37,090 nt of DNA from contig CALYSG010000001.1 of NCBI GenBank assembly GCA_945485605.1, forward strand, positions 1 to 37,090, written 5' to 3'. Source of the DNA: an uncultured Clostridia bacterium (GTDB lineage: Bacteria > Bacillota > Clostridia > Oscillospirales > CAG-272). Positions 12,626-37,090 of this stretch are shown here, piece after piece (the stretch's first letter is position 1; every line of letters begins with the position of its first letter). The notes below the pieces were generated by a model. The model worked only from the letters and a program-made list of their open reading frames with translations. It had not been told where the DNA came from and ran no database searches. Position numbers and translations under genes: made by a program.

Positions 12626-12645
12626 CCTGAAAGGAAAATCAAAAA

Positions 12646-20292: not shown

Positions 20293-20324
20293 TTGACAAG
20301 TTTTTTTGATTGTGATATTATAAT
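20293..20324 (+). promoter_or_regulatory. Candidate sigma-70-type promoter of the 16-kb operon
   Basis: TTGACA (20293-20298), then TATTAT at a 17-nt spacing (20316-20321), overlapping TATAAT (20319-24). It lies about 260 nt upstream of the first ATG at 20585. Confidence 0.5.
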
Positions 20325-20349
20325 GCCACAAAAAATACCGACCGTATAT

Positions 20350-20378
20350 ATCGCCTCCCGGAGTCGCCGGGAGGCGAT
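20350..20378 (+). promoter_or_regulatory. Perfect 12-bp hairpin in the long operon leader
   Basis: ATCGCCTCCCGG-agtcg-CCGGGAGGCGAT. No U-tract follows, so it is not a classic terminator. Further small hairpins lie downstream: CGCGC-tccg-GCGCG near 20410, and GTTTGCC-cgaaa-GGCGAAC near 20538-20556. Confidence 0.45.
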
Positions 20379-20584
20379 GCGGATTCTTCCGAAGAAAAAG
20401 GTGATCCGACGCGCTCCGGCGCGGTATGATACGGACGTTTCTGCGTTTGCACGCCTCAGACTCCGACCGGGAGATCTCCGAAGTCGCGGAGGGACCGGAA
20501 AAGAACGGCGGCGACGGACGCGGGCTTTTATCAAGTCGTTTGCCCGAAAGGCGAACGCAACTATCTGTCAGGAGGAAAATCCAG

Positions 20585-23500
20585 ATGAAGCAAAACCTAT
20601 TCAGGCGAATTCTTGCGTTAGTATTGGCGCTTTCATGCCTTGCCGGATGCGTCGTCGCGGCTTCTGCCGCAGAGACGTCATCGGGAAGCACTTCGGGCGG
20701 CTCGACGACCGATACGACGCTTGCCGACGTAAGGGAGCTGCTTAACGCACTCTCCTACGCCGATTATTCGACGAAGGAGCCCTTTGCGAGTGCAAAACCG
20801 GGAAGAGAACCGATAGTTATCGACGCGCTCAGCTACAATGCCGAAAAGACCGACTCGAAGGTATACCGTGTTAAAGTCGATGAAAAGACCGGTATTGCCA
20901 CAATAGTCGATGCTTCCTATGTGCCCGCCGAGGGCGAGTCGATCGGACTCTTCGTCGGTGACTCGGGCGAGCTTGCTTATAAGCTCAATATACCTTCGAC
21001 CGCAAAGTACAACATTAAAATAGAGTACTACCCCGCGCTTGAACTCGTGGATGCCGAGGGCAACTCGATCTCCACCGACAAGTCGGGTTCCATTGAGCGC
21101 ATACTTAAGATAAACGGTACGATACCCTTCTCCGAGGCGCGCTACCTTGTGCTTCCGAAGATATGGAAGAACGTCTACACGATCAAGATGGAGACCGTTA
21201 AGACGAATGTTGCCGCCGACGGCACCAAGACCTACGAGTATGCCGATGTTACACCTTACATAGAGAAGGCGGAGAAGTGCGGCATAAAGTACACCGTCGC
21301 CGCAGACCGTTCCTCGATAACACTTGAATTACCCGAGGAAGGCTGGTCGCTCGATACCACGGGAAAGATGCAGGAGAATGCCCTTCGCCTCTTCACGCAG
21401 GATATCGACGGCAACGAGATCCGCAGCAACATGATACGCGTCCCCGAATGGCTCGAGTATAACTGCAAGGATGTCGACGGCTTCTATTCAAGGAACTTTG
21501 AGTTTGTATTCCTGCCGGGTGCAAACGAGATAAGCCTTCTCGCGAAGAGCCAGGCGATGGTCATAAAGTCGATAACGCTCTGCCCCGCCGAGGATCGCCC
21601 GTCTTATGAGGACGTGAAGAAGAGCTATGCCGAGAAGGGCTTCACCGCCGGAACCGGTAAGCTGAAGTTCGAGGCGGAATTTCCCTTCGCAACGACCTCG
21701 CAGACGATCTATCCGATCGAGGATTCTTCTTCCGCGATCACCTCTCCCTCCGACACGTCAAAGACTATCCTCAACACGATAGGCGGAGAGAAATGGCAGA
21801 CCTCGGGTCAGAGGATCAGATATCGCTTTACTGTCGATAAGGACGGCTTATATAATATTGTAACCCGTTACCGCCAGAACGTTAACGACGGTATCTTCTC
21901 GTCGCGTGTGCTGTACCTTTACAGCGACGGACTTGATAAGGACGCCGACGGATATTACAACGGTGTTCCTTTTGCCGAAGCCACCAACCTCAGATTTGAG
22001 TTTTCGACCGATTGGCAGGTCTCTCCGCTCAAGTATGCAAAGGAGATCAAGCAGGAGGACGGCAGCTCAAAGTGGGAGAGCGTCAACCTTGAGTTCTACT
22101 TCAAGGCGGGCGTGACCTACACGATGGAGCTTGAGGTCGCCCTCGGCGACATGGGCTCGATCGTCAGCGCGGTAAGCACTTCGCTTACTAACGTAAACAG
22201 TTACTACCTTAATATATTGAAGCTCACCGGAGCCGAGCCCGACCAGTACCGCGACTACGGTTTCTACCGTATAATGCCCGATACCATGCAGGGACTCGTA
22301 GTTGAGTCGAGAAGACTCAGCGACATCTCGGCGGAGCTTAAGAATATCGCCGGTCAGAGCAGCTCAAACGCAGCTACACTTGATAAGATAGTCCGACTCC
22401 TTGAGGAGATGGGAACCGACGAGGACAACGTTGCAAAGAACCTTGACCAGCTGAAGACCTACATAGGTACTCTCGGTACATGGATCAACGACAATAAGAC
22501 TCAGCCGCTTCAGTTCGACTATTTCGTCGTTCAGGCTCCCGGAGAAGCGCTTCCCGCCGGAAAGGCAAACTTCTTACAGACGATCGGACACGAGTTCATG
22601 AAGTTCTGGTACAGCTTCTGGCGTAACTACAACCGCATGGGTGCGACCAATGCCGGTGAGAACGAAGAGGCTATCGATGTCTGGCTTGCCTACGGTCGTG
22701 ACCAGACACAGGTCATCAGAAGCCTTATAAACAATGACTTTACTCCCCAGACCGGACACCTTGTCAACCTTAAGCTCGTGGCGGGAGGCTCGCTGCTTCC
22801 TTCGATACTTGCCCAATCGGGTCCCGATGTCTATATCGGTATCGGTGAGGATAACATCATCAACTATGCTATCCGCGGAGCTCTTATGAATATAGAGAAC
22901 TTCGAAGGATTTTATGAGCTGACCGACACCTACCTGCGTGAGCATAAGACGGTTGACGATCTTATATATGATCTGAAGGCTCAGAATTATATAATAACCG
23001 GCGAAGCGGGTAAGGAGATCAAGGCTATGTCGACCGACGGCGTCGCGATGTACACGATAAAGTACAACGCCGACGGCTCCGGCGTATGCACCGACCGCGC
23101 GGGTAAGACATATTACAGCTTCACCGCGGAAGGATGGCTCTATGAGACCGGTTCGACCTTCAGCGGCAGGACTTATACCTATAAGTATCAGCTCGATGAA
23201 AACGGCAATAAGATAAAGAACGATAAGGTCCAGTTCAACGAGGCGGCGATGTATACGCTCGGACTTCCCGATGCCGACAACATCATGCACTACTACGGTC
23301 TCCCCGAGACGCAGACCTTCTCGATGATGTTCGTGAGAAACGACATCCTTGCAAACCTCGGGATAGAGATCCCGAAATCGTGGGACGACGTTCAGGCGGC
23401 AATACAGACGCTTGAGTCGAAGAATATGCAGATCGGTATGTCGAACGACTATAAGATCTTCCTCTATCAGAAGGGAAGCAAGCTCTTTGCCGACGACGGA

Positions 23501-24490
23501 ATGAGGATCAACCTTGACTCGAATATCGCGCTCGACTCCTTCGATTATATGTGTAACCTCTTCACGATGTATTCATTCCCGTATAAGTACGACTTCTCGA
23601 ACCGTTTCAGAACGGGCGAGATGCCGATAGGTATCGCGGGATACAACGGAACCTATAACCAGCTCATCGTTTTTGCGACCGAGATCCGCGGACTCTGGTC
23701 GTTCTACCCGATCCCCGGTATCGCGACCTACAAGACCGACGATGCGGGCAGATATGTCTACGAGGACGGCAAGAAGGTCGTTGAAAACATCAATAATGTT
23801 GCCGTTGCCACGGTTTCGGCTATCTCGATGATAAACGGATGCAAAAATACCGAGGCGGCATGGTCGTTTATGAAGTGGCACGTCGGTCCCGAATGTCAGG
23901 TCAACTACTCGAACGAGATGGTAGCTATACTCGGTGACTCGGCAAAGCACGCTACGGCAAACATCACGGCTCTCGAAAGTATGCCGTGGACGACCGAGGA
24001 GTATAAGCAGCTCTCGGCACAGTTCAACAACCTTGCGTCAATACCCAACTACCCCGGATCGTATATTATAGGCCGTTATACGAAGTTCGCATTCCTTGCC
24101 GCTTACGATAAGAACGCGAACCCGACGACCTCACTGCTCAAGTATATAAACACGATCAATAAGGAGATCACGAGAAAGCGCGATGAGTTCGGACTTGAGA
24201 CTCTTGAGATCGGTGAGACGCTTGCAAGCAAGAGAATAGCTCAGGCGGAGGCTAAGCTCGACTCGCTCAGCGACGGAGCAAAGGCTCAGTACAAGACAGA
24301 GATCGAGGCGCTCAGAAAAGCGATAGCGAACCTTGATTCACAGAAGGCAAGGGTATCGCTTGAGAAGATCGAGGCGCTTGAAGCGGCATCCGACGGACTC
24401 CGCGCGACGCAGTATTCGGATCTCTTTGAGGTCGCGGACTTCATCGATACTGCGGCAGCGGCTCTGAGAGATTACAGATTCTCGTATTGA
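20585..24490 (+). CDS. Giant extracellular solute-binding lipoprotein (CUT1-type SBP core with about 650 aa of extra N-terminal modules and a C-terminal coiled coil)
   Basis: 1,301 aa counted from the ATG at 20585, which has an AGGAGG ribosome binding site. The signal peptide has a lipobox (LSCLAGC) followed by an S/T/G linker. Two beta-rich modules of similar style follow (YNIKIEYYP...ISLLAKSQAMVIKSITL and LYNIVTRYRQ...TYTMELEVALG). From about aa 695 the sequence is SBP-like (IDVWLAYGRDQTQVIRSLINNDFTPQTGHLVNLKLVAGGSLLPSILAQSGPDVYIG) and has a beta-rich insert. The tail is Ala/Lys/Glu-rich and helical. The tracked start at 20426 has no ribosome binding site or signal peptide. Confidence 0.85.
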   Translation: MKQNLFRRILALVLALSCLAGCVVAASAAETSSGSTSGGSTTDTTLADVRELLNALSYADYSTKEPFASAKPGREPIVIDALSYNAEKTDSKVYRVKVDEKTGIATIVDASYVPAEGESIGLFVGDSGELAYKLNIPSTAKYNIKIEYYPALELVDAEGNSISTDKSGSIERILKINGTIPFSEARYLVLPKIWKNVYTIKMETVKTNVAADGTKTYEYADVTPYIEKAEKCGIKYTVAADRSSITLELPEEGWSLDTTGKMQENALRLFTQDIDGNEIRSNMIRVPEWLEYNCKDVDGFYSRNFEFVFLPGANEISLLAKSQAMVIKSITLCPAEDRPSYEDVKKSYAEKGFTAGTGKLKFEAEFPFATTSQTIYPIEDSSSAITSPSDTSKTILNTIGGEKWQTSGQRIRYRFTVDKDGLYNIVTRYRQNVNDGIFSSRVLYLYSDGLDKDADGYYNGVPFAEATNLRFEFSTDWQVSPLKYAKEIKQEDGSSKWESVNLEFYFKAGVTYTMELEVALGDMGSIVSAVSTSLTNVNSYYLNILKLTGAEPDQYRDYGFYRIMPDTMQGLVVESRRLSDISAELKNIAGQSSSNAATLDKIVRLLEEMGTDEDNVAKNLDQLKTYIGTLGTWINDNKTQPLQFDYFVVQAPGEALPAGKANFLQTIGHEFMKFWYSFWRNYNRMGATNAGENEEAIDVWLAYGRDQTQVIRSLINNDFTPQTGHLVNLKLVAGGSLLPSILAQSGPDVYIGIGEDNIINYAIRGALMNIENFEGFYELTDTYLREHKTVDDLIYDLKAQNYIITGEAGKEIKAMSTDGVAMYTIKYNADGSGVCTDRAGKTYYSFTAEGWLYETGSTFSGRTYTYKYQLDENGNKIKNDKVQFNEAAMYTLGLPDADNIMHYYGLPETQTFSMMFVRNDILANLGIEIPKSWDDVQAAIQTLESKNMQIGMSNDYKIFLYQKGSKLFADDGMRINLDSNIALDSFDYMCNLFTMYSFPYKYDFSNRFRTGEMPIGIAGYNGTYNQLIVFATEIRGLWSFYPIPGIATYKTDDAGRYVYEDGKKVVENINNVAVATVSAISMINGCKNTEAAWSFMKWHVGPECQVNYSNEMVAILGDSAKHATANITALESMPWTTEEYKQLSAQFNNLASIPNYPGSYIIGRYTKFAFLAAYDKNANPTTSLLKYINTINKEITRKRDEFGLETLEIGETLASKRIAQAEAKLDSLSDGAKAQYKTEIEALRKAIANLDSQKARVSLEKIEALEAASDGLRATQYSDLFEVADFIDTAAAALRDYRFSY

Positions 24491-24525
24491 CATAGCAACG
24501 CAAATAACGATGTAAGGAGATAATT

Positions 24526-25473
24526 ATGTCACAGAATACGACAAAGAAAAAAGCTGTGGCGCGCAAGGATATGTCGAAGCTCCAGTGGACGCTGAAGGAA
24601 ATGAAGCGTAACTGGGCGGGATATGTGATGATCGCTCCCTTCGTGATCCTATTCACACTCTTCACGGTATGCCCTGTGTTGCTTTCGGTGGTATTCAGTT
24701 TCACAGACTTCAATATGTTGCAGGTACCGAATTTCGTCTTTCTCGATAACTATGCGAGACTGTTCCTTGATGACGATATATTCCTCATAGCCTGCAAGAA
24801 TACCTTTATATTCGCGTGTATCGTCGGACCCGCGTCCTACATTATGTCTCTTATGGTCGCGTGGTTCATAAACGAGCTGTCGCCGAAGATCAGATCGCTT
24901 GTTACCCTGGTCTTCTACGCGCCGTCAATTTCGGGTGAGGTCTACCTCATCTGGAAGACACTCTTCTCGGGAGACGCCTACGGCTGGGCAAACGCCTGGC
25001 TTATGAAGCTCCAGATAATAACCGAGGAGATCAACTGGTTCGAAAAAGCCGAATACGTAATGCCCCTTTGTATCATAGTTGCTCTATGGCAGTCCCTCGG
25101 AACGGCGTTCCTTTCGTTCATCGCCGGTCTTCAGGGTATCGACCGCTCACTATACGAGGCGGGAGCCGTTGACGGTATCAGAAACCGTTGGCAGGAGCTT
25201 TGGTACATAACCCTTCCGAGTATGAAGCCTCAGCTGATGTTCGGTGCTATCATGTCGATCACGAACTCGTTCGGCTTCGGATCGGTCGTTACCGCACTTT
25301 GCGGCTTCCCGTCTGTCGACTACGCGGCGCATACGATAATGCACCATCTGAACGACTACGGAAGTACGCGATTTGAGATAGGTTATTCGTCAACGATCGC
25401 TGTGGTTCTGTTCGCTATCATGATATCGGCGAACCTGCTGGTCAAAAAACTGATTTCGAAGGTAGGTAAGTGA
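24526..25473 (+). CDS. Carbohydrate ABC transporter permease (MalF/UgpA-like), pair 1
   Basis: 315-aa ORF with multiple TM segments. It has an EAA loop, YEAGAVDGIRNRWQELWYITLPSMKP, and an AAGGAG ribosome binding site. Confidence 0.92.
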   Translation: MSQNTTKKKAVARKDMSKLQWTLKEMKRNWAGYVMIAPFVILFTLFTVCPVLLSVVFSFTDFNMLQVPNFVFLDNYARLFLDDDIFLIACKNTFIFACIVGPASYIMSLMVAWFINELSPKIRSLVTLVFYAPSISGEVYLIWKTLFSGDAYGWANAWLMKLQIITEEINWFEKAEYVMPLCIIVALWQSLGTAFLSFIAGLQGIDRSLYEAGAVDGIRNRWQELWYITLPSMKPQLMFGAIMSITNSFGFGSVVTALCGFPSVDYAAHTIMHHLNDYGSTRFEIGYSSTIAVVLFAIMISANLLVKKLISKVGK

Positions 25474-25474
25474 T

Positions 25475-26347
25475 ATGGCAAGATTAAGAACAAGAAAACA
25501 CAGAGTCGTCCTCAGCCGTTCTACGGGAGGCGATATCGGAATTACACTTATCCTTGTGATACTCGGCGTATTTATGTTCCTGCCGATGTGGTACGCGATC
25601 GCGCAGTCATTCAAGCCGCTTGACGAGCTTTGGCTGTTCCCGCCGAGATTCATAGTCTACAGACCTACTTTCAAGAACTATCAGGACCTCTTCGTTCAGA
25701 TGAATGTTTCGTGGGTGCCTTTCTCAAGGTACATATTCAATACGGTCCTCGTTTCGGTCACCGGAACGGTCGGAAACCTCTTCCTCTCGTCGATGGCGGC
25801 GTACGCCTTCTCGAAGATCCACTTCCCCGGAAGAAAGTGGATGTTCAAGACGATAAGAATGTCCCTCATGTTCCACTCGACGGTTACGTCGATCACAAAC
25901 TACTTCATCATGAGCCGTCTCGGCTGGGTAGATACCTACCTTGCAAAGATAGTCCCCGCCTTCTGTACGACTCTCGGTCTTTACCTTATGAAGCAGTTCA
26001 TGGATTCGCAGGTGTCCGAGTCGGTGCTCGAATCTGCACGTCTTGACGGTGCGAGCGAGTTCAGGACCTTCTGGATGATAGCGATGCCTATGGTAAAGCC
26101 CGCGTGGCTGACTCTTATCATTTACTGCTTCCAGGGCCTCTGGAATGCGGGACAGTCTATCTACATTCAATCCGAGCAGCTCAAATCATTTAACTACGCA
26201 ATTCAGCAGATCGTCGCCGGAGGTATCAAGCGTGCCGGTGCCGGTGCCGCGGCGCAGGTCATCATGATGATGGTCCCAATACTGGTATTCGTCGTAACCC
26301 AGTCAAACATCATCGAGACGATGGGCTCCAGCGGTATGAAGGATTAA
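25475..26347 (+). CDS. Carbohydrate ABC transporter permease (MalG/UgpE-like), pair 1
   Basis: 290-aa ORF that starts 1 nt after the previous stop. EAA loop: ESARLDGASEFRTFWMIAMPMVKPA. Confidence 0.92.
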   Translation: MARLRTRKHRVVLSRSTGGDIGITLILVILGVFMFLPMWYAIAQSFKPLDELWLFPPRFIVYRPTFKNYQDLFVQMNVSWVPFSRYIFNTVLVSVTGTVGNLFLSSMAAYAFSKIHFPGRKWMFKTIRMSLMFHSTVTSITNYFIMSRLGWVDTYLAKIVPAFCTTLGLYLMKQFMDSQVSESVLESARLDGASEFRTFWMIAMPMVKPAWLTLIIYCFQGLWNAGQSIYIQSEQLKSFNYAIQQIVAGGIKRAGAGAAAQVIMMMVPILVFVVTQSNIIETMGSSGMKD

Positions 26348-26362
26348 AAAAGGAGGCAGAGT

Positions 26363-28558
26363 ATGGTAAAAAGAATAAGTGCCGTGCTGGCAGTGATCTT
26401 CATAATAATTATTCTGTGCTCGCTTCCGGTCGGCGCAAAGTCATATCAGACCTATACCTACGCGCTTAAGGGCTATCCGCTGAATTCGCCCGACGCCTAT
26501 GTTCCCGAGATCGAGATAACCTCGGACTATATAGGTCTTACCGGCGGATCGGATATTCTGAAGGCTCTCAAAGAACCCTCGGATATCGAGGTAGACGAGA
26601 ACGGCTGGGTATATATAGCCGACTCGGCAGCCGATACGAAGGACGCCAAGTACAGCCGTATCGTCGTACTTGACAATAACTTCAAGCTTAAGCACATAAT
26701 AAAGGACTTTGATAACGATCAGGGTAACCCCGATACGCTGTGCGGACCGAAGGGTGTCTTCATCACCGATGACACGATCTATGTCTGCGATACAGATAAG
26801 AACAGAATAGTTACCTTTGACCGTCAGTTCAACTTCATCGACATAATCAAAGCCCCCGAAGACGAGCTCTTCGAGAACGACTCGGTCTATAAGCCGGTCG
26901 CGATCGCGGTTGACCAGTACGACAGACTTTACGTCGTGTCGTCAACGACCAACCAGGGCGTTATCATGATGACACGTGACGGCGACTTCACCGGGTTTAT
27001 CGGGGCGCAGAAATCCTCGCTCTCGACCTGGGATATAATCTGGAGACGTTTCCAGACCGACGAGCAGAGAGCACAGTCGGCAAAGGTCGTTCCGACCGAG
27101 TTCAACAACATCGCAATAAACAGCGACGGCTTCGTTTATGTCACTACGAACAAGATCAATGAGAAAACTCAGCAGAATGCAATAAAGAAGAAGTCAAAGA
27201 GCGGTGACTACGCTCCCGTCAAGCTCCTCAACCCCGCGGGAGAGGAGATCATGAGACGTAATGGCTTCTGGCCGCCGTCCGGTGACGTTCAGGTCGGTGC
27301 CGCTAACGAAGAAAACGGCGGAGCTTCCTCGATAATCGACGCCGCGGTCGGACCCGAGAAGACCTGGTCGATCGCCGACAGCAAGAGATCGAGGATCTTC
27401 ACCTATGACTTCGACGGGAACCTGCTCTTCGCCTTCGGACAGAAGAACGGCGGACAGCTCGGAAACATCGACCTTCTTGCAGGTATAGTCTATCAGCGCA
27501 ATTACGATGCCGACGGAAATCAGAACTACAAGATGCTCCTGCTCGATAAGAACAACAAGAGCTTCACGGTATTCCGCCAGACAGAGTACGGAAAGACACT
27601 GATCCAGGCTCTCGCACATCAGAACGCCCGTCAGTACGACACGGCGGTCGATGACTGGTTCGAGATACTGAAGAGAAACTCAAACTACGACGCGGCTTAT
27701 ATAGGTATAGGTCAGTCGATGTACAGAAACGGTCAGTACGAGGAATCAATAGAGTACTTCAAAGCTGCATACGATACCTCGAACTACTCGAGCTCGTATG
27801 AGGAGATCCGTAAGGCATGGATCACAAAGTGGCTCCTGCTTATACCGATCGGGGCTGTGGCGATCATCGTCGGATGCGTCTTCTTTATGAGGTATGCAAC
27901 TAAGGTCAACAGCCGCGCGGCTGTCGCCGGAGGTAAGAGAAACTTCAAGGAGGAGCTGCTCTACGGCTTCCACGTGATCTTCCACCCGTTCGACGGCTTC
28001 TGGGATCTGAAGCATGAGAAACGAGGCTCGCTGAGGGCTGCGATAGTCTTTATTCTGCTGACGATCGTCGCGTATTTCTATAAGGCGGTCGGCTCGGGTT
28101 ACTCGGTAAATCAGCAGACGGTCTATACGACGATAGTCGAACAGGCGGTGCAAGTAGTCCTGCCGCTTATGCTCTGGGCGATCGCAAACTGGTGTCTTAC
28201 GACGCTCTTTGACGGCGAGGGCAGCTTCAAGGATATCGTCATAGCGGTCGGGTATTCGCTTCTCCCGGTAATCCTTACGTTGATTCCGACGACGTTTGCC
28301 TCGAACTTCATGGTAAGCTCCGAGATAGACGTACTGAACTTTATCACGAACGTCGGACTTATCTGGGCGGGACTCCTGATCTTCACCGGTATGATGGTAA
28401 CACATGACTATTCGATAGGTAAGAACCTTGTAACGACGATCGGTACGCTTATCGGAATAATCTTCATAATGTTTATCAGCGTACTCTTCGTAACACTTCT
28501 CGGAAAAGTAGTCAGCTTCGTCACAAACATCATCACCGAGATAAGGTACAACGCATAG
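26363..28558 (+). CDS. Membrane protein with a signal/anchor, an NHL-like beta-propeller, TPR-like helices and a C-terminal YIP1-type 5-TM domain
   Basis: 731-aa ORF. Propeller-blade motifs recur: WVYIADSAAD...SRIVVLD, IYVCDTDKNRIVTFD, LYVVSSTTNQGVIMMTRDG, FVYVTTNK and SRIFTYDFDGNLLFAFG. A TPR-like stretch follows (YDTAVDDWFEILKRNSNYDAAYIGIGQSMYRNGQYEESIEYFKAAYD). After one further TM helix comes FHVIFHPFDGFWDLK plus five hydrophobic helices, which is YIP1-like. Confidence 0.8.
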   Translation: MVKRISAVLAVIFIIIILCSLPVGAKSYQTYTYALKGYPLNSPDAYVPEIEITSDYIGLTGGSDILKALKEPSDIEVDENGWVYIADSAADTKDAKYSRIVVLDNNFKLKHIIKDFDNDQGNPDTLCGPKGVFITDDTIYVCDTDKNRIVTFDRQFNFIDIIKAPEDELFENDSVYKPVAIAVDQYDRLYVVSSTTNQGVIMMTRDGDFTGFIGAQKSSLSTWDIIWRRFQTDEQRAQSAKVVPTEFNNIAINSDGFVYVTTNKINEKTQQNAIKKKSKSGDYAPVKLLNPAGEEIMRRNGFWPPSGDVQVGAANEENGGASSIIDAAVGPEKTWSIADSKRSRIFTYDFDGNLLFAFGQKNGGQLGNIDLLAGIVYQRNYDADGNQNYKMLLLDKNNKSFTVFRQTEYGKTLIQALAHQNARQYDTAVDDWFEILKRNSNYDAAYIGIGQSMYRNGQYEESIEYFKAAYDTSNYSSSYEEIRKAWITKWLLLIPIGAVAIIVGCVFFMRYATKVNSRAAVAGGKRNFKEELLYGFHVIFHPFDGFWDLKHEKRGSLRAAIVFILLTIVAYFYKAVGSGYSVNQQTVYTTIVEQAVQVVLPLMLWAIANWCLTTLFDGEGSFKDIVIAVGYSLLPVILTLIPTTFASNFMVSSEIDVLNFITNVGLIWAGLLIFTGMMVTHDYSIGKNLVTTIGTLIGIIFIMFISVLFVTLLGKVVSFVTNIITEIRYNA

Positions 28559-28571
28559 TCGGAGGGATAAT

Positions 28572-31500
28572 ATGAAAAATGTAATGAAAATACTGTCGGC
28601 TCTCTTGGCTGTGCTGATGCTGTGCGGGACCGTGACGGTCGGAGCAGGTGCTCTTACCCGTTACGACGAAAACGGCAACGCCGAAGGGTCAAGCAAGTTC
28701 AAGGAAGACTCCGTGAACTATGAGCTGACGATAGAAAAGAACCTTGAGTCCTCAAGGTTCAATACCCCGCAGGAAAAGGTCGCGAGCATGGACCTTATGT
28801 GGGAAAAGAACGGCTACAGAATGTATGTTGACCCGATCAGCGGAGAGGTCGCGACCGAGAAGATCGTGACCGGAGAGCTCCTCTTCACAAACCCGTGGGA
28901 CCTTTCAAACGCAGCATACACCGCGGTCACACCGGGCAAGAAGGACAAGAGCACCGCTCTCAGCGTCAAGAAGCAGCTTATGTCGCAGATAGTTATCACC
29001 TACATCGATAACAACAACCCGAAGGAGCTTTACAGCTGCATCGAGGCTGCGGCGAGAAATCAGATCAATGTTGAGTACATAAAGAACGGTATCCGCATAG
29101 AGTACTCGATCGGACGCGAGGAAGCGAGAATGCTTGTTCCTATGCGCATAAGCAAGGAAAGATTCGAGAAGAGGATCCTTCGCGAGATGCGTGAGACCGC
29201 CAATACCGAGGAAATCCTCGTTATCGACCCCAACGCCATTATCGGTACGGTCAGCGACGGTAAGAAGAAATTCGGCGATGCTCTCGATAAGGGAGCCGAA
29301 CCGGGCGAGGAATACGGATATTACGACTACGTAAAAAAGTTCATCGATCCGAACTTCGATATGGAGGGAGCACCTCTTTCGGGTGAAAGACTCAAAAAGT
29401 CCGACTACGGATTTGAGTATGAGTGCTTCGCGGTCATAAAGTTTACCTCGTACTACATTGAAAAGAACCTTGACAACGCGTCGACCGACGCCGAGCGTTC
29501 TTCGATCCTTGCCATGTATCCGATAGTCAAGCAGATGCCTATCTACATTATCGATACAACGGTCAAGGACAATGCCTCACAGATGAGGAAGGTCGAATCG
29601 TATATCAAGGACTACGCACCGACTTACACCTACGAGGAGCTTGACAACGACCATGAGCTGACCGAATACGAGGCGATGGCAAAATCGCCCGTCCTCTTCA
29701 AGGTCGCTCTCGAGTATACTGTCGATGAAGACGGTCTTGTCGTGCGTATGCCGGCTAACGGAATACGCTTCGACGAATCGATATATCTGCTTGAGAATAT
29801 CGAGATGATCCCTTACATGGGTGCCGGAAGGAACGACGGCGACTGGAGCGACGGAGGCGACGGATACAACTTCTTCCCGGACGGCTCCGGTGCACTGTTC
29901 GACTTCCAGCAGCTGAATGACGGTGCTCACCACGATGCATATGCGCAGATCTACGGTACCGACTTTGCATACCATACGATCGCGGGTCAGCATCAGGAAA
30001 CGGTGAGATACCCCGTTTTCGGTATCGTAGAGCACTGGACCGGAAAGAAGACCGACTACACGAAGGTCATCAAGCAGGAGGTCCTCAACGAGGACGGAAC
30101 CGTTAAGACCCCCGCGGTGTACGGAACGAAGGACGTTGACGAAGATCACGGCTTCCTCGCGATAATCGAGGAGGGTGACGCTCTCGCCAAGCTGACGACG
30201 GTCCACCTCAGCGCAAAGAGCATCTATAACACGGTCAAGATGAGTTTCTACCCGAGACCGAAGGACAGCTACAATATGGCTGACGCGATCTCTGTCGGCT
30301 CGAATAAGGAAATGACCGTCGTTTCGGAGAGAAAATACGTCGGTAACTATAAGGTCAGATACGTAATGCTCTCTGACGATGAGCTTGCAAAAGAGAATAA
30401 CCTCTCAAAATACTACGAATGCTCATGGATGGGCATGGCGGTCGCATACCGCGACTACCTTGAAAAGCAGAACGTCCTTACAAGACTTACCGAAAGCGAC
30501 GTTTCGGCAAATATTCCTCTCTATATCGAGACCTACGGCGCTATTATGACGACCGAGAAGATCTTCTCGATCCCGGTCGACGTAATGACACCTCTGACGA
30601 CCTTCGAGGACGTCAAGACGATGTACAACGATCTGTCGGGCGATATAAAGAAGAAGACCGAGGAGCTCGTGAACAGCGGTAACACGACCTCTGCCGGAGA
30701 AGAAAACGTAAAGAATGCCGCAAACATCAACTTTAAGCTCACGGGATATGCAAACGGCGGTATGTACTCGGTCATGCCTTATAACCTCAACTGGGAAAAG
30801 GCTGTCGGAGGCTCATCGGGCTTTGCTGATCTTGTGAAGTATTCGAAGGAGAACAACTTCGGTGTCTTCCCGGACTTCGACTTTGTATATTCTGAGAATC
30901 AGGCGAACTTCGACGGTGTGGACCTCAAGACGGACGCCGTAAAGACGATAGATAACCGTTACACGATGCGCCGTTACTTCAGCGCGACGTATCAGGCGTA
31001 CGTAGGTTACTACGAGCTCGCGATCTCGGCGTCAAGGTACGACAAATTTATCACCAAGCTGCTCTCTAATTACCTTAAGTACGACCCGACCGGCATATCG
31101 GTTTCGACTCTCGGTACCGACCTCAACTCGGACTTCGACGAAGAGGATCCGCTGAACCGCGAGGATTCGAAGGAATATACGATCGACGCGCTTAAAAAAC
31201 TCAACAACACGATCAATGCCTCCGGAAACGCGCTTAAGATAATGACGAGCGGAGGAAACGCTTACACCTGGAGATACGCCGACTACATTATAAATATGCC
31301 GCTTAATTCGAGCCGTTATAACGATTCGAGCAACGCGGTGCCCTTTATAGGTGTCGTGCTTCACGGATACCTCCAGTTCGCCGGTACGCCTATCAACGAA
31401 GAGGGCGATATCGAGTATGCGTTCCTGAAGGCCATCGAAAACGGTGCCGGACTCTACTTCGTAATCTCTTATCAGAACACTCAGAAGCTTAAGGACGATT

Positions 31501-34500
31501 TCCGACTCAGCGAGCATTACTCTGTCAGATACGATATCTGGAGAGATGACCTTGTTGATATGTATGTCGAGCTGAACGATCTTCTGAGCGATCTGCAGAC
31601 AAAACTCATAATTGACCACGAATTCCTCGTTGGTTCCCGCGTTCCCGATCCCGATGAGGTGATAGAGGACGAAGAGAACAAGAGAAAAGAGGAAGAGCTT
31701 AAGGCAGCCGAAGAGGCAGCCGCCGCCGCAAAGAAGGAGATCGCAGAGGCTCTTGCCCTCAGAAAGACTCCTATGACGCAGGCAAAGGCTACGGAAGCCG
31801 AGCTCGCCCGCGTTGCCTCCTACATTACTGCCGCGGCAAAGCACGCCGCACTGATCGACAGGAGCTATATCGACATCTGCGCAGACCTTGCAAAGGCGTC
31901 CGAGAATGCTCTGAAGGCAGCTGCCGAGGCACAGAAGGCAGTTTACAGCGCCACGGCGTTTGCTGCGGGCGAGAAGGATGCCGCGGATTCTGTCAGCAGC
32001 AAGATAAAGTCAGCTGTTGACAGCGCAGTAACCGATGCGCTCACCGCTCTGCTCGTCGGCGTAACCGATAATGCAAAGAGGACCGAGATAACCGCAAAGG
32101 TCAACAGCATTGCCGCTGAACTGAAGGCTGCCGCCGCGAACTCCGGCGCTGCCGAGGCGGCAAGACTCGCCGCTACGGCGGGCACTTACTTCAGCGATGC
32201 CGAAGCGGCCACCGCTAAGGAAAATGCCGCCAAGAAGATCGTTGATGCCGTTGCCGAAGGTATCGGAGACGAGAGCGCTGCCCTTACCGTAGCCGCCGAT
32301 GAGGCGGATCGCGTCATCGTTTCTATGGTCTCCGAGCTTCTCATTGAAAAGGTACTTGCCGCATTCACGGCTGCCGACGCCGCATCGGTCTACGATGTAG
32401 CGAAGAAGTCCTATGACAAGAACGTGACCGAGACAAACGACACGATCACAAGGATCGCTACCCTGCTTTCCAACAAGGAGACGACGAAGGCTGCGGCAAT
32501 AGCTGCCGGCGTTTCCGAGGCAGATGTCGCGAATGCGATCGCACTTGCCGAAGCCCGTCAGACGGCAGCAAGTAAGGTGACCGCCGCGAAACCCGATGAG
32601 AAGGCTTACACCGACGCTTCTTACGCTTACAATACGAAGATAGCTCTCTACTATTCGGCACTCAATGACACCTACAAGACTCTTGCGGGCAGCGATAGCG
32701 CGCTCAAGACCGCTCTCGAAAAGCTCGCGGCTTATGCTCAGGCTAATACCGAGGCAGCGGCGGCGGAGGCTCAGGCAAGTGTCAATCCGAGCGAATCGAA
32801 TACCGAGAATGCAACAAACAAACGCAACACAGCCAACACGAGAAAGGCTGAATATGAGGCACTTTCAGAGGCTGACCGCAACGCCGCTCAGGCAGTAGCC
32901 GACAGAGTCGATGCCGCTGTCGCCGCAAACAGCGACGATGCCTACAAGGCTCTCGCAACCAAGTTTGCCGACATGAATACCGCAAAGACCGCGGTATCCG
33001 ATGCCGAAGTCGGATACAAAGCATACCTTGTGCTCGTAAAAGAGTACAATGACGCAAAGACGGCATATGAGACGGGCGAGGTCGTAGCGATCGCGAAGGC
33101 GGCTGCCGACGCGAATTACACCGCAGTCGCTGCCGTTTATAACGAAGTAGCCAAATCAGATGCCATAAAGACCGCGCGTGAGATCACGGCACTGATCGAT
33201 GTCCTCATAAAGGCCGAAGCCAACCTCGCGTCCGTGAAGGATACATACGACACCGCGAAGGAATTCTTCGAAAAGACCGGACTTGAGGAGGGTGCTTACA
33301 ATACCGCGAAGGCCGCATACGAGACGGCGCTTACGGCTATGACGACAGCGAAGGCTGACCTTGACGGCGCGAGAAACGCCGCGGCTCACAAGACCGAATT
33401 TGAGGCGGTCGAAGCCGCTTACAGAGCGAAGCTTACCGCCGATACGCAGAATAAGCTGATAACCGACCTTGTTAAGTATACCGAGGACGCCGTGAAGGGT
33501 CTCTTCGGAATGAGCGCCGAGATGGCCGATGCGATAAATAAGACGGCAGACTACATCGTCAAGAACAACAAGGCTGCCGAAGCCTCTGCAACCTACAAGA
33601 CCTATATGTCGAAGATCGACAGCGCGGTATCCTCCATAAACTCGAGCATCGCGAATATGAAGGCCTCCGTAAGCCTTGCCGAATCGGCTACCGAGTCACT
33701 CAAGGAGAAGTACGAGGCAACTCTTGCCGATCCCAATGCGAGCGCGATAGAGAAACAGAGCGCAAAGCAGTTCTACGAGTCGGCAGTAGCCAATACGAAG
33801 AAGGCAAGCGACAACCTTGCCGCTCTCGAAAGAGATTACGACGAGCTGCGCAAACTGACCTACAACGAAGCCCTTACAAAGGCTAAGGCGATCGTATTCG
33901 GCTACGAAACGGTCGAGAACGATAAGAAGGCGGCGACAGACGCGTTCGTAAAATTCAACAATGCTCTTAACACATCCGATGAGGCGCTTAAGATAATCGA
34001 CAGCGAGTGGAAGAAGATGGTCGACGCCGCGAAGACCTATACCGAATCCGCGAATGCTCTTGCCGATATGGCAGAGAAGGATTTTGACGCCATGAGCAAG
34101 GCTGAGAAGGAAGAATACAAAGCTAATCTCGTGCTCTATTCCTACAGAAAGATGATCGCTGAGGAAGAGCTCCGCTCAGCACAGGAGATCATCAGTACGA
34201 ACCTTCTCATCTTCAAGGACGATAAGGGCTACAGAAATATGACGAAGCTCCGCAACAGCGCCGAGGCTTCTGTCCAGCTTCTCAAAGTTGACCTCGAGTA
34301 CGCCGCATCGCTTAAGGCTCTCTATGATGCCGACGCGACCGCGACAGCCGAGGATAGGGCTTACGCCGACGAAAAGTATGAGAACCTCAAGGCACTCTAC
34401 GACAGCTACTGCGAGATGCTTGAAAAGGCTGATGCGATGCTTGCACAGGTGCGTGCATTCGCACTTGAGCAGGAGCTTATCGACGAGAAGTTCGAGATCG

Positions 34501-34757
34501 TAAACAATACGAAGGCACAGGATCTCTTTAATGAGACCCTCAACGTAAAGAAGAAGAACAACACCACCGTCGAGACTGACAAGTACACGAGCTCGGACGG
34601 CTCGATCGTCGCCGTTACCTACGGCGGCAAGGACGGAAAAGACAACGAAGCCTACCGCACCTTCATACTTAACTACAATTCGTTCACTATAACCGTGACC
34701 TACGCCGGCGTCGAGTACACTATCCCCGGCTACGGATACAAGGTTATAAATCACTGA
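28572..34757 (+). CDS. Giant secreted protein: globular region of about 1,030 aa (DUF5696-like by recollection), Ala-rich helical region of about 930 aa, and a short beta-rich C-terminus
   Basis: 2,061-aa ORF with a GGAGGG ribosome binding site. It has a Sec-type signal peptide (MKNVMKILSALLAVLMLCGTVTVGAGA) with no canonical lipobox, and no LPXTG, SLH or C-terminal TM segment. The N-region is rich in Asp/Asn/Tyr/Phe (FFPDGSGALFDF, YIETYGA, NFGVFPDFDFVY). Confidence 0.85.
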   Translation: MKNVMKILSALLAVLMLCGTVTVGAGALTRYDENGNAEGSSKFKEDSVNYELTIEKNLESSRFNTPQEKVASMDLMWEKNGYRMYVDPISGEVATEKIVTGELLFTNPWDLSNAAYTAVTPGKKDKSTALSVKKQLMSQIVITYIDNNNPKELYSCIEAAARNQINVEYIKNGIRIEYSIGREEARMLVPMRISKERFEKRILREMRETANTEEILVIDPNAIIGTVSDGKKKFGDALDKGAEPGEEYGYYDYVKKFIDPNFDMEGAPLSGERLKKSDYGFEYECFAVIKFTSYYIEKNLDNASTDAERSSILAMYPIVKQMPIYIIDTTVKDNASQMRKVESYIKDYAPTYTYEELDNDHELTEYEAMAKSPVLFKVALEYTVDEDGLVVRMPANGIRFDESIYLLENIEMIPYMGAGRNDGDWSDGGDGYNFFPDGSGALFDFQQLNDGAHHDAYAQIYGTDFAYHTIAGQHQETVRYPVFGIVEHWTGKKTDYTKVIKQEVLNEDGTVKTPAVYGTKDVDEDHGFLAIIEEGDALAKLTTVHLSAKSIYNTVKMSFYPRPKDSYNMADAISVGSNKEMTVVSERKYVGNYKVRYVMLSDDELAKENNLSKYYECSWMGMAVAYRDYLEKQNVLTRLTESDVSANIPLYIETYGAIMTTEKIFSIPVDVMTPLTTFEDVKTMYNDLSGDIKKKTEELVNSGNTTSAGEENVKNAANINFKLTGYANGGMYSVMPYNLNWEKAVGGSSGFADLVKYSKENNFGVFPDFDFVYSENQANFDGVDLKTDAVKTIDNRYTMRRYFSATYQAYVGYYELAISASRYDKFITKLLSNYLKYDPTGISVSTLGTDLNSDFDEEDPLNREDSKEYTIDALKKLNNTINASGNALKIMTSGGNAYTWRYADYIINMPLNSSRYNDSSNAVPFIGVVLHGYLQFAGTPINEEGDIEYAFLKAIENGAGLYFVISYQNTQKLKDDFRLSEHYSVRYDIWRDDLVDMYVELNDLLSDLQTKLIIDHEFLVGSRVPDPDEVIEDEENKRKEEELKAAEEAAAAAKKEIAEALALRKTPMTQAKATEAELARVASYITAAAKHAALIDRSYIDICADLAKASENALKAAAEAQKAVYSATAFAAGEKDAADSVSSKIKSAVDSAVTDALTALLVGVTDNAKRTEITAKVNSIAAELKAAAANSGAAEAARLAATAGTYFSDAEAATAKENAAKKIVDAVAEGIGDESAALTVAADEADRVIVSMVSELLIEKVLAAFTAADAASVYDVAKKSYDKNVTETNDTITRIATLLSNKETTKAAAIAAGVSEADVANAIALAEARQTAASKVTAAKPDEKAYTDASYAYNTKIALYYSALNDTYKTLAGSDSALKTALEKLAAYAQANTEAAAAEAQASVNPSESNTENATNKRNTANTRKAEYEALSEADRNAAQAVADRVDAAVAANSDDAYKALATKFADMNTAKTAVSDAEVGYKAYLVLVKEYNDAKTAYETGEVVAIAKAAADANYTAVAAVYNEVAKSDAIKTAREITALIDVLIKAEANLASVKDTYDTAKEFFEKTGLEEGAYNTAKAAYETALTAMTTAKADLDGARNAAAHKTEFEAVEAAYRAKLTADTQNKLITDLVKYTEDAVKGLFGMSAEMADAINKTADYIVKNNKAAEASATYKTYMSKIDSAVSSINSSIANMKASVSLAESATESLKEKYEATLADPNASAIEKQSAKQFYESAVANTKKASDNLAALERDYDELRKLTYNEALTKAKAIVFGYETVENDKKAATDAFVKFNNALNTSDEALKIIDSEWKKMVDAAKTYTESANALADMAEKDFDAMSKAEKEEYKANLVLYSYRKMIAEEELRSAQEIISTNLLIFKDDKGYRNMTKLRNSAEASVQLLKVDLEYAASLKALYDADATATAEDRAYADEKYENLKALYDSYCEMLEKADAMLAQVRAFALEQELIDEKFEIVNNTKAQDLFNETLNVKKKNNTTVETDKYTSSDGSIVAVTYGGKDGKDNEAYRTFILNYNSFTITVTYAGVEYTIPGYGYKVINH
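31666..34470 (+). other. Alanine-rich, predicted all-helical low-complexity segment inside the 2,061-aa CDS
   Basis: The segment runs from EDEENKRKEEELKAAEEAAAAAKKE to ...RAFALEQELIDEK. Composition is dominated by A, K, E, T, D and S with periodic Tyr (for example AKAAYETALTAM and AKTAYETGE). It has essentially no Pro, Gly-rich or Trp content. At DNA level it is not an exact tandem repeat. Confidence 0.75.
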
Positions 34758-34776
34758 GAAAGGAGAAGCAAAAGAA

Positions 34777-35763
34777 ATGACTGAAAACATTAAGCTGAAC
34801 GGCACCGAAACGAAGAAAAAATCCGGCGCCAAGAAGAAAAAACGCAGTCATGCCTCGCTTGACAGGCGTAAGGCGCGTTCCGGCTGGATCTTCGTCGCAC
34901 CGTTCGTGATCGGCTTTCTCTTCATCTACTTCCCCATAGTCTTGCAGTCAATAAAGATGAGCTTCTTCACTTACGAGACTCTTGCCGGCGGAGGCTACAC
35001 CATGGAGTGGGTCGGCTTCGAGTATTTCAGACAGGCGCTGTTCGTAAACCCGAAGTTCGTGCAGACTCTGATAACCGGAATCGGAGATATGATATTCGAG
35101 ATCCCCGCGATTATAATCTTCTCGCTCTTCATGGCGGTACTTCTGAACCAGAAGATGGCGGGCAGAGCACTCTTCCGCGCGATATTCTTCATTCCGGTTA
35201 TCCTGTCCACCGGTATTATGGAATCGATCAATAACCAGAACATCCTTGATGAGTACATGGAGGAAAGTATCTCGGACGGAACCGAATCGAGTGCCGCCGA
35301 TCAGATCGCCTCGGCGATGGATATTCAGGCGCTCTTCTCAGGAATGGCGGTCGGATCCGAGCTTGCCGAGATAGTTGCCGACTGGGTCAACAAGATATTC
35401 CAGATAGTAAACCGTTCGGGCGTTCAGATGCTTATATTCCTTGCCGGACTGCAATCTATCTCTCCTGCGATCTACGAATCGTGCCAGATAGACGGTGCGA
35501 CCGCATGGGAGACCTTCTGGAAGATCACATTCCCGATGATAAGCCCGATGATACTCGTCAACTCGGTATATACGGTCATAGATTCCTTTACGACCGACTC
35601 AAATACCATTATGAAATTTATTTCAAATGAGTATCTGCAGCCGGACGGAAAGGGAACGAGCACCGCTATGTCGTGGATGTACTTCCTCATCGTAATAGCT
35701 ATGGTCGGTATCATCGCGGCGATATGCTCCGCCTTCGTCTTCTACCAAAGACGAAATGACTGA
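34777..35763 (+). CDS. Carbohydrate ABC transporter permease (MalF/LplB-like), pair 2
   Basis: 328-aa ORF with a basic N-terminus (KKKSGAKKKKR). EAA loop: YESCQIDGATAWETFWKITFPMISP. An extended extracytoplasmic loop covers about aa 145-205. Confidence 0.9.
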   Translation: MTENIKLNGTETKKKSGAKKKKRSHASLDRRKARSGWIFVAPFVIGFLFIYFPIVLQSIKMSFFTYETLAGGGYTMEWVGFEYFRQALFVNPKFVQTLITGIGDMIFEIPAIIIFSLFMAVLLNQKMAGRALFRAIFFIPVILSTGIMESINNQNILDEYMEESISDGTESSAADQIASAMDIQALFSGMAVGSELAEIVADWVNKIFQIVNRSGVQMLIFLAGLQSISPAIYESCQIDGATAWETFWKITFPMISPMILVNSVYTVIDSFTTDSNTIMKFISNEYLQPDGKGTSTAMSWMYFLIVIAMVGIIAAICSAFVFYQRRND

Positions 35764-35780
35764 GAAAGGAGAGAAGATAA

Positions 35781-36842
35781 ATGGATACAACAGTGAATTC
35801 ATACCGCGATCCGCATAAGAAGGTAAAGGTCGAGTTTGACCGTGCCCCTCTTGCGCAGCGGCTCAAAGCAAAATATCTCTCCTTCTTCTTCATAAAGAAG
35901 GTCGTCTGGTATCTCTTCAGGCTCATACTTCTTATCGGTATATCGTACGTCGTTATCTACCCCTTCATCACGAAGATCGCGGGCTCGTTCATGTCGCCTG
36001 CGGACTTCGTCGATGTCACGGTACTTATTATACCGAAGCACTTCACACTTGACACTTATACGGCGATATTCAACGAGCTGAGCTACAGTGAGGCTTTTCT
36101 GAATACCTTCATGCTTTCTATATCCTGCGCGGTGATTCAGACGCTGAGCTGTTGCCTTGTCGGATACGGACTCGCGAAGTTCAAGTTCAAGGGTGCGAAG
36201 TACGTCTTTCTCGCCGTCATACTGACGATGATCCTTCCGTACAGAACGCTTTACAGCTCTATCATAGGATTTTTCGGCAGCTTTGATATAAGGGGACCGC
36301 TCTCGGCGCTTATCGACGGCCCCGGACTCTTCACACTGCTCGGAATGGCGGGATGGGAAGAGGTTGCAAACGGGATCAATATCAACAACACCTACTTCCC
36401 ACTTCTGATTCTCTCGGCGGCAGGACTTGCATTCAAGAACGGACTCTATATATTCCTTCTGAGACAGTTCTTCCGCGGAGTCCCCGACGAGCTCGAGGAG
36501 TCGGCTTACATCGACGGATCGGGTACGATAAAGACCTTCATCAGCATAATCCTTCCGCTTTCGGTGCCGATGCTGATAACGGTATTCCTCTTCTCGTTCT
36601 CGTGGCAGTGGACCGATATAGACTATACCGGAATGTTCTTCACGTCGACCAAGACGAAGCTGCTTCCCAACATAGTCGGCATCCCTCAGTCTCTCTCCCT
36701 TAAGGCGGAGGACTTCGCCGCCGGTAAGAACCTCTATGAGGCGGCGATAAGAAACACCTGCGGACTTATGATAATCGCGCCGCTGGTAGTCGTTTATGTC
36801 TTCTGCCAGAAGTTCCTGGTACAGGGCATAGAGCGCTCCGGT
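35781..36842 (+). CDS. Carbohydrate ABC transporter permease (MalG/LplC-like), pair 2; 3' end not resolved (no stop codon before the window end)
   Basis: This ORF is not in the supplied track because the frame never terminates. The ATG at 35781 follows an AGGAGAG ribosome binding site. The translation starts MDTTVNSYRDPHKK...LILLIGISYVVIYPF, has the EAA loop EESAYIDGSGTIKTFISIILPLSVPM, and ends with a family-typical ...FCQKFLVQGIERSG at 36842. After that the translation becomes R/L/Q-rich nonsense. Confidence 0.8.
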
Positions 36843-36845
36843 CAC

Positions 36846-37088: not shown

Positions 37089-37090
37089 CA

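Follow-up and report, generated by a model that had tools for sequence, protein, structure and literature searches.

A conserved seven-gene cassette of Bacillota as a candidate glycan capture, processing and import system built around a CUT1-type ABC transporter

The stretch of DNA analysed here (the window) comprises positions 1 to 37,090 of contig CALYSG010000001.1 (assembly GCA_945485605.1), 37,090 nucleotides (nt) from an uncultured Clostridia bacterium of the Oscillospirales lineage CAG-272. It carries on the forward strand a cassette of seven genes, encoding a large solute-binding lipoprotein, a first pair of permeases (P1 and P2), a membrane protein with NHL, TPR and Yip1 domains, an exported DUF5696 protein and a second pair of permeases (P3 and P4). 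On a slight balance of probability, this cassette is read in our study as an accessory-rich CUT1-type ATP-binding cassette (ABC) sugar importer which captures, processes and imports a glycan and which is conserved across Bacillota. The component superfamilies are already known, as is the overall logic of an enzyme acting together with an ABC importer; its novelty lies in the fixed arrangement of seven genes, in the doubled translocon, in the unusually large receptor, in the Yip1/propeller partner and in what is probably a new glycosidase family. An earlier sequence-only reading of the same DNA knew of no experimental characterisation, and this has held up in a full-text literature search, which returned no paper on DUF5696 or PF18952. 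Searches on Yip1/NHL/solute-binding/permease combinations and on new GH129/GH101 families gave nothing on this system, and no study was found of any accessory part. RefSeq names the parts of the cassette by domain only, and the module which that reading had named for other Firmicutes (binding protein, permeases, YIP1 and DUF5696 proteins) is exactly the RefSeq annotation in Butyrivibrio and Paenibacillus.

The order of the seven genes was found to be kept far outside this species. In total, 93 loci were fetched, gene order being judged on those that were sufficiently complete, and for the 83 that belong to uncultured gut and rumen Clostridia the open reading frames (ORFs) were scored against the window proteins. 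Every sufficiently complete locus has the large solute-binding protein (SBP), P1, P2, the NHL/TPR/Yip1 protein, the DUF5696 protein, P3 and P4 in this order. The identical order is present in Butyrivibrio fibrisolvens pNP243 (28% identity of the DUF5696 protein), on a megaplasmid of Paenibacillus cellulosilyticus (21%), in Neobacillus kokaensis and Cohnella luojiensis, in two more metagenome-assembled genomes (MAGs) and on conspecific contigs, the DUF5696 identity being 21-28% in Butyrivibrio, Paenibacillus, Neobacillus and Cohnella. The flanking genes are unrelated from locus to locus, and clustering of the 1091 flanking ORFs of the 83 gut-clade loci revealed only lineage-specific housekeeping synteny (the alanyl-tRNA synthetase AlaRS, a methyltransferase and SufCD). 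The sequence-only reading had left room for a purely local adjacency; the seven genes were instead found to co-occur across genomes of Clostridia and Bacilli, in the same order and between different flanks. Further, a scan of one genome per species gave at least 526 genomes with a close (gut-type) DUF5696 relative, the best 80 all being uncultured gut or rumen Clostridia, and a full-library phmmer search with the DUF5696 protein returned 3804 clusters at 50% identity, 1109 of them at an E-value of 1e-30 or below, with lengths of 595-2545 amino acids (aa) among the best 150 matches.

The surroundings of the cassette in distant relatives are rich in genes of sugar metabolism and its regulation. 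In Butyrivibrio the neighbours are a glycoside hydrolase (GH) of family GH43, a histidine kinase, a response regulator and two extra SBPs; in Cohnella they are LacI, an extra SBP and enzymes of GH26, GH113 and GH9; in Neobacillus GH2 and GH38 enzymes with sugar oxidoreductases were found, and in one MAG LacI with GH30 and GH35. Moreover, two distinct homologues each are present in P. hamazuiensis (on a single contig) and in Paenibacillus sp. 32352. In the cultured relatives this context is the pattern of a carbohydrate-uptake module which is reused for different substrates.

In the window the seven genes lie on the plus strand as follows: gene 1, the SBP lipoprotein (20585..24490, ATG start, 1301 aa); gene 2, P1 of MalF/UgpA type (24526..25473, 315 aa); gene 3, P2 of MalG/UgpE type (25475..26347, 290 aa); gene 4, the NHL/TPR/Yip1 membrane protein (26363..28558, 731 aa); gene 5, the exported DUF5696 protein (28572..34757, 2061 aa); gene 6, P3 of MalF type (34777..35763, 328 aa); and gene 7, P4 of MalG type (35781..36843, of which 354 of the 358 aa are in the window). 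The sequence-only reading had described seven tightly packed genes, each with its own ribosome binding site. This description agrees with the intergenic gaps of 35, 1, 15, 13, 19 and 17 nt (in order) and with the AGGAGG-like site ahead of all seven start codons. For gene 1 an alternative in-frame ATG upstream at 20426 would make a protein of 1354 aa, and the ATG at 20585 is the one with the AGGAGG ribosome binding site.

The same reading had placed one promoter and a structured leader of about 260 nt before gene 1, and both are recovered here. A candidate sigma-70 promoter (TTGACA-17 nt-TATTAT with an upstream, extended TG; 20293..20321, plus strand) agrees with the consensus at 11 of 12 positions, is the top-scoring site in the region of 19.5-37.1 kb and is kept in two related loci (L005 and L004). 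It is followed by a 5' leader of about 257 nt (20328..20584, plus strand) with a 13-bp GC-rich hairpin near its 5' end; the minimum free energy of the leader is -105.3 kcal/mol (z = -2.99), a value equalled by 1 of 200 shuffled sequences. No Rfam family was matched by the leader at an E-value of 1 or below, and it is recognisably conserved in the two closest relatives only (88% and 80% nucleotide identity); a riboswitch is not claimed. A search with the consensus of the catabolite-responsive element (cre) gave chance-level matches only, none of them within the promoter or leader. Inside the operon, the terminator-like hairpins on the plus strand are two weak ones of 5 bp, which is the frequency expected by chance. 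From this arrangement the seven genes appear to be a real operon, presumably transcribed as a single unit.

One point of the sequence-only reading had to be corrected, namely the end of the last gene, which it had placed at 36842. No stop codon is present there and the frame runs off the end of the window. A P3 protein identical to that of the window is encoded on many metagenome contigs (indexed in 109 blocks of the assembly collection). Four of them, which are conspecific, match the window at 99.2-99.3% identity along 12,067 nt, up to 36843, after which they diverge. Past this position they read ...GGTCTTACAGCCGATTGA and gene 7 stops 14 nt later, giving a complete P4 of 358 aa which ends in IERSGLTAD; 3' of gene 7 they have a 20-bp GC-rich hairpin, followed by a convergent 88-aa ORF and nrdR. 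The remaining 247 nt of the window (36844-37090) have no match in any fetched sequence and read on the minus strand as an unrelated ORF (...KNRLDFAIKGSEKSDFPRYAQLVCLAQKLQLSSAEEQLKQAETLLEKDEEDNLLLAVKGLAARDVSAMVSFILAAKPEAKAVTGA). This part is foreign to the locus, probably as an assembly chimera at the contig end or a strain-specific rearrangement, and the in-frame extension of gene 7 past 36843 was rejected as coding sequence of that gene. The natural operon ends with gene 7 and a hairpin, which strengthens its reading as a single unit.

All four permeases matched BPD_transp_1 above the Pfam cut-off (E-values of 1e-12 for P1 and 4e-12 for P4) and possess the EAA loop (E[AS]xxxDG...P), at aa 211 in P1, 186 in P2, 234 in P3 and 240 in P4. 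They form two complete MalF/MalG-type pairs, and the presence of EAA loops in both implies that each pair should dock an ABC ATPase dimer. The identity between the pairs is 26% for P1 with P3 and 21% for P2 with P4. Among the NCBIfam models, P1 was nearest to UgpA, and P2 resembles UgpE, GlcU and MalG; the permeases resemble UgpA/E, MalF/G and GlcT/U far below threshold, and no NCBIfam cut-off was reached. Across the 83 gut-clade loci the identity is 70-98% for P1 and 71-98% for P2, as compared to 41-79% for the DUF5696 protein. In Paenibacillus (L085, ugpC) and Neobacillus (L086) a gene for an MsmX/UgpC-type ATPase (ABC_tran/TOBE) lies directly 5' of the cassette. The second pair has two features of its own. 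In P3 the third hydrophobic segment is followed by an acidic stretch of about 70 inserted aa (window 35166-35420, aa ~130-215), at the position of the extracytoplasmic P2 loop of MalF. As with the helical insertion of the DUF5696 protein, this one may be confined to the gut clade, since the Paenibacillus P3 has only 289 aa. P4, with its 358 aa, is longer than the usual MalG-type permeases (~280-300 aa).

The domain calls which the sequence-only reading had made were each recovered by Pfam. In the gene 1 protein the N-terminus MKQNLFRRILALVLALSCLAGC is a lipoprotein signal with an LAGC lipobox, and the single hydrophobic segment is at aa 9-27. The domain SBP_bac_1 (PF01547) was found at aa 893-1103 (E-value of 1e-14; 55.8 bits against a gathering score of 26); homologues carry PF01547 and PF13416. 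The binding domain is preceded by an N-terminal extension (20813..22498, plus strand, as delimited with an AlphaFold2 model and Foldseek), of about 580 aa, which is kept throughout the distant relatives; homologues of 1070-1140 aa have this N-terminal region in common with the window protein. The model covers aa 23-672, including the first strand of the SBP fold, with a mean predicted local distance difference test (pLDDT) score of 93.2 and a predicted template modelling (pTM) score of 0.89. It consists of a first beta-sandwich (~aa 77-333), a second beta-sandwich (~aa 359-519) and a four-helix spacer (~aa 523-638). The beta-jelly-roll fold of the carbohydrate-binding module (CBM) families CBM6 and CBM35 is present in the modelled extension. 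Foldseek matched it to CBM35 (2w1w) and CBM6 (2cdp, 2cdo) with a probability of 1.0 and template modelling (TM) scores of 0.53-0.61 on the target, as well as to sandwich domains of multidomain glycan enzymes. By sequence, no CBM Pfam match was obtained in the window protein, just a sub-threshold Golvesin_C, and nothing meaningful was found in the PDB; the homologue P0177 carries a precomputed match to PF16990, which we take to be CBM_35. At its C-terminus the protein has a tail of some 120 aa rich in Ala, Glu and Lys (window 24125-24487, aa ~1181-1301), which is helical by sequence and has a comparable counterpart in the consensus of the homologues. This tail could pair with the helical insertion of the DUF5696 protein or with the TPR domain.

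The gene 5 protein matched DUF5696 (PF18952) in three stretches with an E-value of 5e-117 (392 bits against a cut-off of 25.6), and its Butyrivibrio and Paenibacillus homologues match the domain end to end. Sequence comparisons assigned it to no enzyme family: no GH101 or GH129 Pfam match was seen even at an E-value of up to 10 for the window protein, its homologue P0022 or the Butyrivibrio and Paenibacillus proteins, and neither phmmer nor a profile of 60 sequences detected a meaningful relative in the PDB. The profile matches to myosin, EnvC and RipA were rejected as generic coiled coils drawn in by the Ala-rich region. NCBIfam has no name for any of the three large proteins. The fold was modelled with AlphaFold2 on P0022, a homologue of 1180 aa (49% identical at 100% coverage; 60 sequences; mean pLDDT of 80). 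The model has an N-terminal beta-sandwich, a TIM barrel and a C-terminal beta-sandwich, as in GH129 and GH101. The best Foldseek matches were to DagB (5opq, a GH129-like 3,6-anhydro-D-galactosidase; E-value of 6e-22) and the GH129 enzyme NagBb (5wzn; 2.5e-18), with TM scores of 0.64-0.68 on these targets, followed by GH101 endo-alpha-N-acetylgalactosaminidases (~1e-11) and, more weakly, GH36 and GH13. Over DagB, NagBb, GH101 and GH36 the E-values span 6e-22 to 1e-8 at a sequence identity of 8-11%. DagB itself is built of an N-terminal beta-sandwich, a TIM barrel and, at the C-terminus, an immunoglobulin-like domain (PMC5698469). The sequence-only reading had considered that the large proteins might fall in well-characterised enzyme families; none does so by sequence, and the resemblance to GH129/GH101 and to CBM6/35 is at the level of the fold, at about 10% identity.

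In an alignment of 31 DUF5696 proteins (~20% identity), several polar residues are conserved, in window numbering the PDGSG motif (D437), YGxD464, D854, R863, N896, N942 and E956. According to the secondary structure of P0022, D854 follows barrel strand 4 and is Asp in at least 90% of the sequences; by strand counting, which involves no superposition, it would correspond to the nucleophile position of GH13, GH101 and GH129.

The window protein contains a helical insertion rich in Ala and about 955 aa long (aa 1036-1990; 31677..34541, plus strand), delimited by composition and alignment and containing 24% Ala, 0.4% Pro and 1.8% Gly. It is missing from the Butyrivibrio and Paenibacillus proteins, in which the flanking strands are contiguous, and it is therefore an insertion, specific to this clade, within the C-terminal sandwich. 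Relatives have versions of about 150 to more than 1000 aa, and in the P0022 model it appears as three long helices and an acidic linker; as both ends return to one domain, it must fold back on itself. The sandwich is completed past the insertion by a C-terminal beta-strand segment (aa 1995-2061; 34554..34754, plus strand; strands 1131-1179 in the P0022 model), which is conserved from the gut clade to Paenibacillus and contains a Tyr and an Asn that are invariant in the 31 sequences. The sequence-only reading had called this protein anchorless, which is uncertain, as the N-terminal hydrophobic segment may be either cleaved or kept as a signal anchor; in the Paenibacillus homologue, the alignment makes a signal anchor look likely.

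The gene 4 protein matched Yip1 (PF04893, E-value of 3e-16), NHL (2e-7) and TPR_16 (7e-6) in Pfam, and its sequence matches in the PDB are NHL propellers and TPR proteins. It is laid out as an N-terminal hydrophobic segment, an NHL beta-propeller (~aa 30-405), a TPR region (~412-485), a transmembrane helix (491-509) and a Yip1 domain with five transmembrane segments (536-705), hydropathy placing the propeller and TPR region outside the membrane. A Yip1-domain gene stands between the two permease pairs in every locus. The NHL/TPR and Yip1 parts are fused as one gene in the window, Paenibacillus and Neobacillus, and are split into two overlapping genes in B. fibrisolvens pNP243 (L084, overlap of 22 nt), C. 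luojiensis (L087, 20 nt) and the MAG GCA_947625675.1 (L088, 4 nt). This occurrence as a split or a fused pair speaks for a joint function of propeller and Yip1 domain. A precedent for a role beside a transporter is YknW, a Yip1-family accessory subunit of the YknXYZ ABC transporter which modulates its assembly (PMC4887032).

These features can be assembled into a possible mechanism, in which we infer the catalysis, the substrate class, the translocon served by the SBP and the function of the Yip1 protein as scaffold or anchor. The substrate would presumably be a polymer or a large oligosaccharide, held at the membrane surface by the lipid-anchored SBP with its two CBM6/35-like modules. The exported DUF5696 protein would cleave or trim the bound glycan, and its helical insertion may be a stalk that reaches through or beyond the wall. 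By analogy with YknW, the NHL/TPR/Yip1 protein would organise the complex as a polytopic membrane scaffold, and the substrate may in addition be bound or modified by its propeller. The products would be taken up by the two MalF/MalG-type heterodimers, energised by a shared MsmX/MsmK-type ATPase encoded elsewhere in the genome. The capture and processing steps had already been proposed in the sequence-only reading, and the fold-level resemblance to CBM6/35 and GH129/GH101 fits that proposal. A bolder form of this mechanism may also be considered, though it stays tentative. In this form the seven proteins would be joined in a single fixed supercomplex and so represent a new class among the binding-protein-dependent ABC importers. 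It would physically couple a CBM-bearing receptor, a glycosidase-fold protein and a Yip1/propeller scaffold to two translocons, and would hold, cut and feed the glycan in one concerted, possibly processive step. Such a machine would be a Gram-positive counterpart of the Sus-type surface machines of Bacteroidetes, of ancient origin within Bacillota and shared by hundreds of uncultured gut species.

Several observations weigh against an importer that captures and processes a glycan. No ABC_tran gene for a MalK/MsmX-type ATPase is present within the 37-kb window, and a shared ATPase elsewhere in the genome is assumed from this together with the adjacent ATPase genes of Paenibacillus and Neobacillus. 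The cassette has one binding protein for two translocons. In the window the cassette neither contains nor adjoins a regulator or a recognised carbohydrate-active enzyme (CAZyme), and among its neighbours in the 83 gut-clade loci there is no recurrent regulator, ATPase or glycosidase. In the other relatives the DUF5696 protein is constant and the neighbouring glycosidases differ widely, which speaks against one fixed substrate. The structural model of the DUF5696 fold is that of the 49%-identical homologue P0022 and not of the window protein. After barrel strand 5, where GH13, GH101 and GH129 have their acid/base, the residue appears to be Asn (N896), again by strand counting and not by superposition, and the PDFDF motif after barrel strand 3 is not kept in the distant members from Butyrivibrio and Paenibacillus. 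For these two reasons catalysis by DUF5696 is plausible but unproven. Finally, in seven long DUF5696 members with N-terminal extensions of 550-1000 aa no Yip1 or NHL domain was seen, and hence no fusion of the two proteins among these seven.

The last points but one lend themselves to another explanation, which we consider unlikely but not negligible, namely that DUF5696 is a non-catalytic relative of the glycosidases with a part in binding, guiding or gating glycans. The oligosaccharides would then be produced by other enzymes, encoded elsewhere, and the cassette would be a generic module for the uptake of large oligosaccharides. The apparent Asn at the acid/base position, the loss of PDFDF and the variable neighbours (GH43; GH26/113/9; GH2/38; GH30/35) around seven constant genes would all be accommodated. 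On the other hand, D437, D464, D854 and E956 are invariant or nearly so over the 31 sequences of about 20% identity. DagB is an active enzyme although only the nucleophile Asp is common to it and NagBb (PMC5698469); since DagB is active without the acid/base of NagBb, the missing canonical acid/base is weak evidence of inactivity. The substrate itself may also be looked for closer to home: the machine of the gut clade could serve the envelope of its own cell, in turnover, recycling or remodelling of wall polysaccharide or capsule, and not foraging. In the window and in the 83 gut-clade loci the cassette lies amid housekeeping genes (such as LeuRS, MetK, RecD2, AlaRS, SufCD and enolase), and neither regulators nor CAZymes recur in its vicinity. 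Moreover, the conservation of P1 and P2 is unusually high in comparison to DUF5696, the promoter is close to the consensus, and no cre site was found. We nevertheless judge this improbable, as in cultured relatives the cassette stands beside sugar regulators and catabolic glycosidases, and two homologues in each of two Paenibacillus genomes are the pattern of substrate-specific nutrient systems.

That the locus is nothing more than a pair of ordinary sugar ABC transporters, independent of each other, and a pair of surface proteins unrelated to them, lying side by side without any functional link, could be argued from the low identity between the permease pairs (21-26%) and from the ability of each pair alone to form a standard translocon. 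The seven-gene order kept in Clostridia and Bacilli with different flanks, the gaps of 1-35 nt and the overlap of the NHL and Yip1 coding regions where these are split all speak against it; on the strength of the synteny this explanation is effectively refuted, and we regard it as most improbable.

If the reading of the cassette as a glycan-capturing and glycan-processing importer is true, it describes a widespread way in which Clostridia of the gut and rumen and Paenibacillaceae of the soil acquire glycans, one that is missed by current annotation based on CAZymes and on polysaccharide utilisation loci (PULs). It would further bring a candidate for a new glycoside hydrolase family and a new kind of binding protein, oversized and equipped with CBMs, and would give the bacterial Yip1 proteins a role in importers. 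As the cassette is present in culturable Paenibacillus, Neobacillus, Cohnella and Butyrivibrio, these proposals are directly testable.

The remainder of the window contains genes of other kinds. Upstream of the operon are the leucyl-tRNA synthetase LeuRS, HIT, MetK, RecD2, a ComF-like protein and a Shango system, and these housekeeping or defence neighbours indicate that the locus is chromosomal. The Shango anti-phage system was identified by PADLOC as three consecutive genes amid housekeeping genes (9628-14883, plus strand): SngA (TerB_N, E-value of 2e-43), SngB (BrxD-like ATPase, 4e-164) and SngC (DEAD/Lhr-like helicase, 2e-241). A SAM-I riboswitch (RF00162; 14948-15037, plus strand; 70.3 bits against a gathering score of 44.4) lies directly 5' of metK. 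The ORF start at 15031 overlaps the aptamer, and the true start of metK is therefore probably downstream of it; the Pfam homology of MetK begins at aa 24. Near the beginning of the window (199-4560) is a cluster of phosphoester hydrolases with the glycerophosphodiester phosphodiesterase GDPD (741-1487, minus strand), a type I phosphodiesterase/nucleotide pyrophosphatase (2317-3615, minus strand) and an Exo_endo_phos protein (3784-4560, plus strand), among which are two ORFs without a Pfam match; this cluster may be linked to the turnover of teichoic acid or phospholipid.

The Gram-positive PULs of Lachnospiraceae (Roseburia, Eubacterium rectale) likewise co-localise a glycan-active enzyme and an ABC importer, whereas the seven-gene core was found in no described locus. 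The combination of enzyme, transporter and regulator by which a PUL is defined is absent in the window and present in Butyrivibrio, Cohnella and one MAG. In the bifidobacterial route for galacto-N-biose and lacto-N-biose, a surface GH101 enzyme (EngBF) releases the disaccharide and an ABC transporter imports it. The logic of an extracellular GH101-fold protein with a CUT1 importer is alike in both cases. However, in bifidobacteria the enzyme and transporter are encoded at separate loci, the enzyme is sortase-anchored, and neither a Yip1/NHL protein nor a second translocon takes part. With the GH129 and GH101 enzymes (NagBb 5wzn, DagB 5opq, EngBF 2zxq and SpGH101 5a55; Foldseek E-values of 6e-22 to 5e-9) the DUF5696 protein has the three-domain layout in common and, by strand counting, apparently also a conserved Asp after barrel strand 4. 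It differs from them in its identity of 8-11%, the lack of a Pfam or PDB sequence match, its extra N-terminal domains, the helical insertion of about 955 aa in this clade and the acid/base position, which by strand counting appears non-acidic. YknWXYZ of Bacillus resembles the cassette in that a Yip1 protein is encoded together with an ABC transporter (PMC4887032). YknYZ is a MacB-type exporter and not a binding-protein-dependent importer, and YknW has no propeller or TPR region.

The closest relatives of the transporter parts are the CUT1 importers (TC 3.A.1.1; MalEFGK2, UgpBAEC), which likewise consist of an SBP_bac_1 lipoprotein and MalF/MalG-type heterodimers with EAA loops. In Bacillus and Streptococcus an ATPase (MsmX/MsmK) is shared among such importers, and the cassette, with its ATPase gene outside the operon and adjacent to it in some relatives, fits this arrangement. 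Whereas an ordinary CUT1 system has a binding protein of the usual size, that of the cassette is three times as large and bears CBM-like modules. This single binding protein is combined with two permease pairs, between which the large Yip1/NHL and DUF5696 proteins are fixed in every locus.

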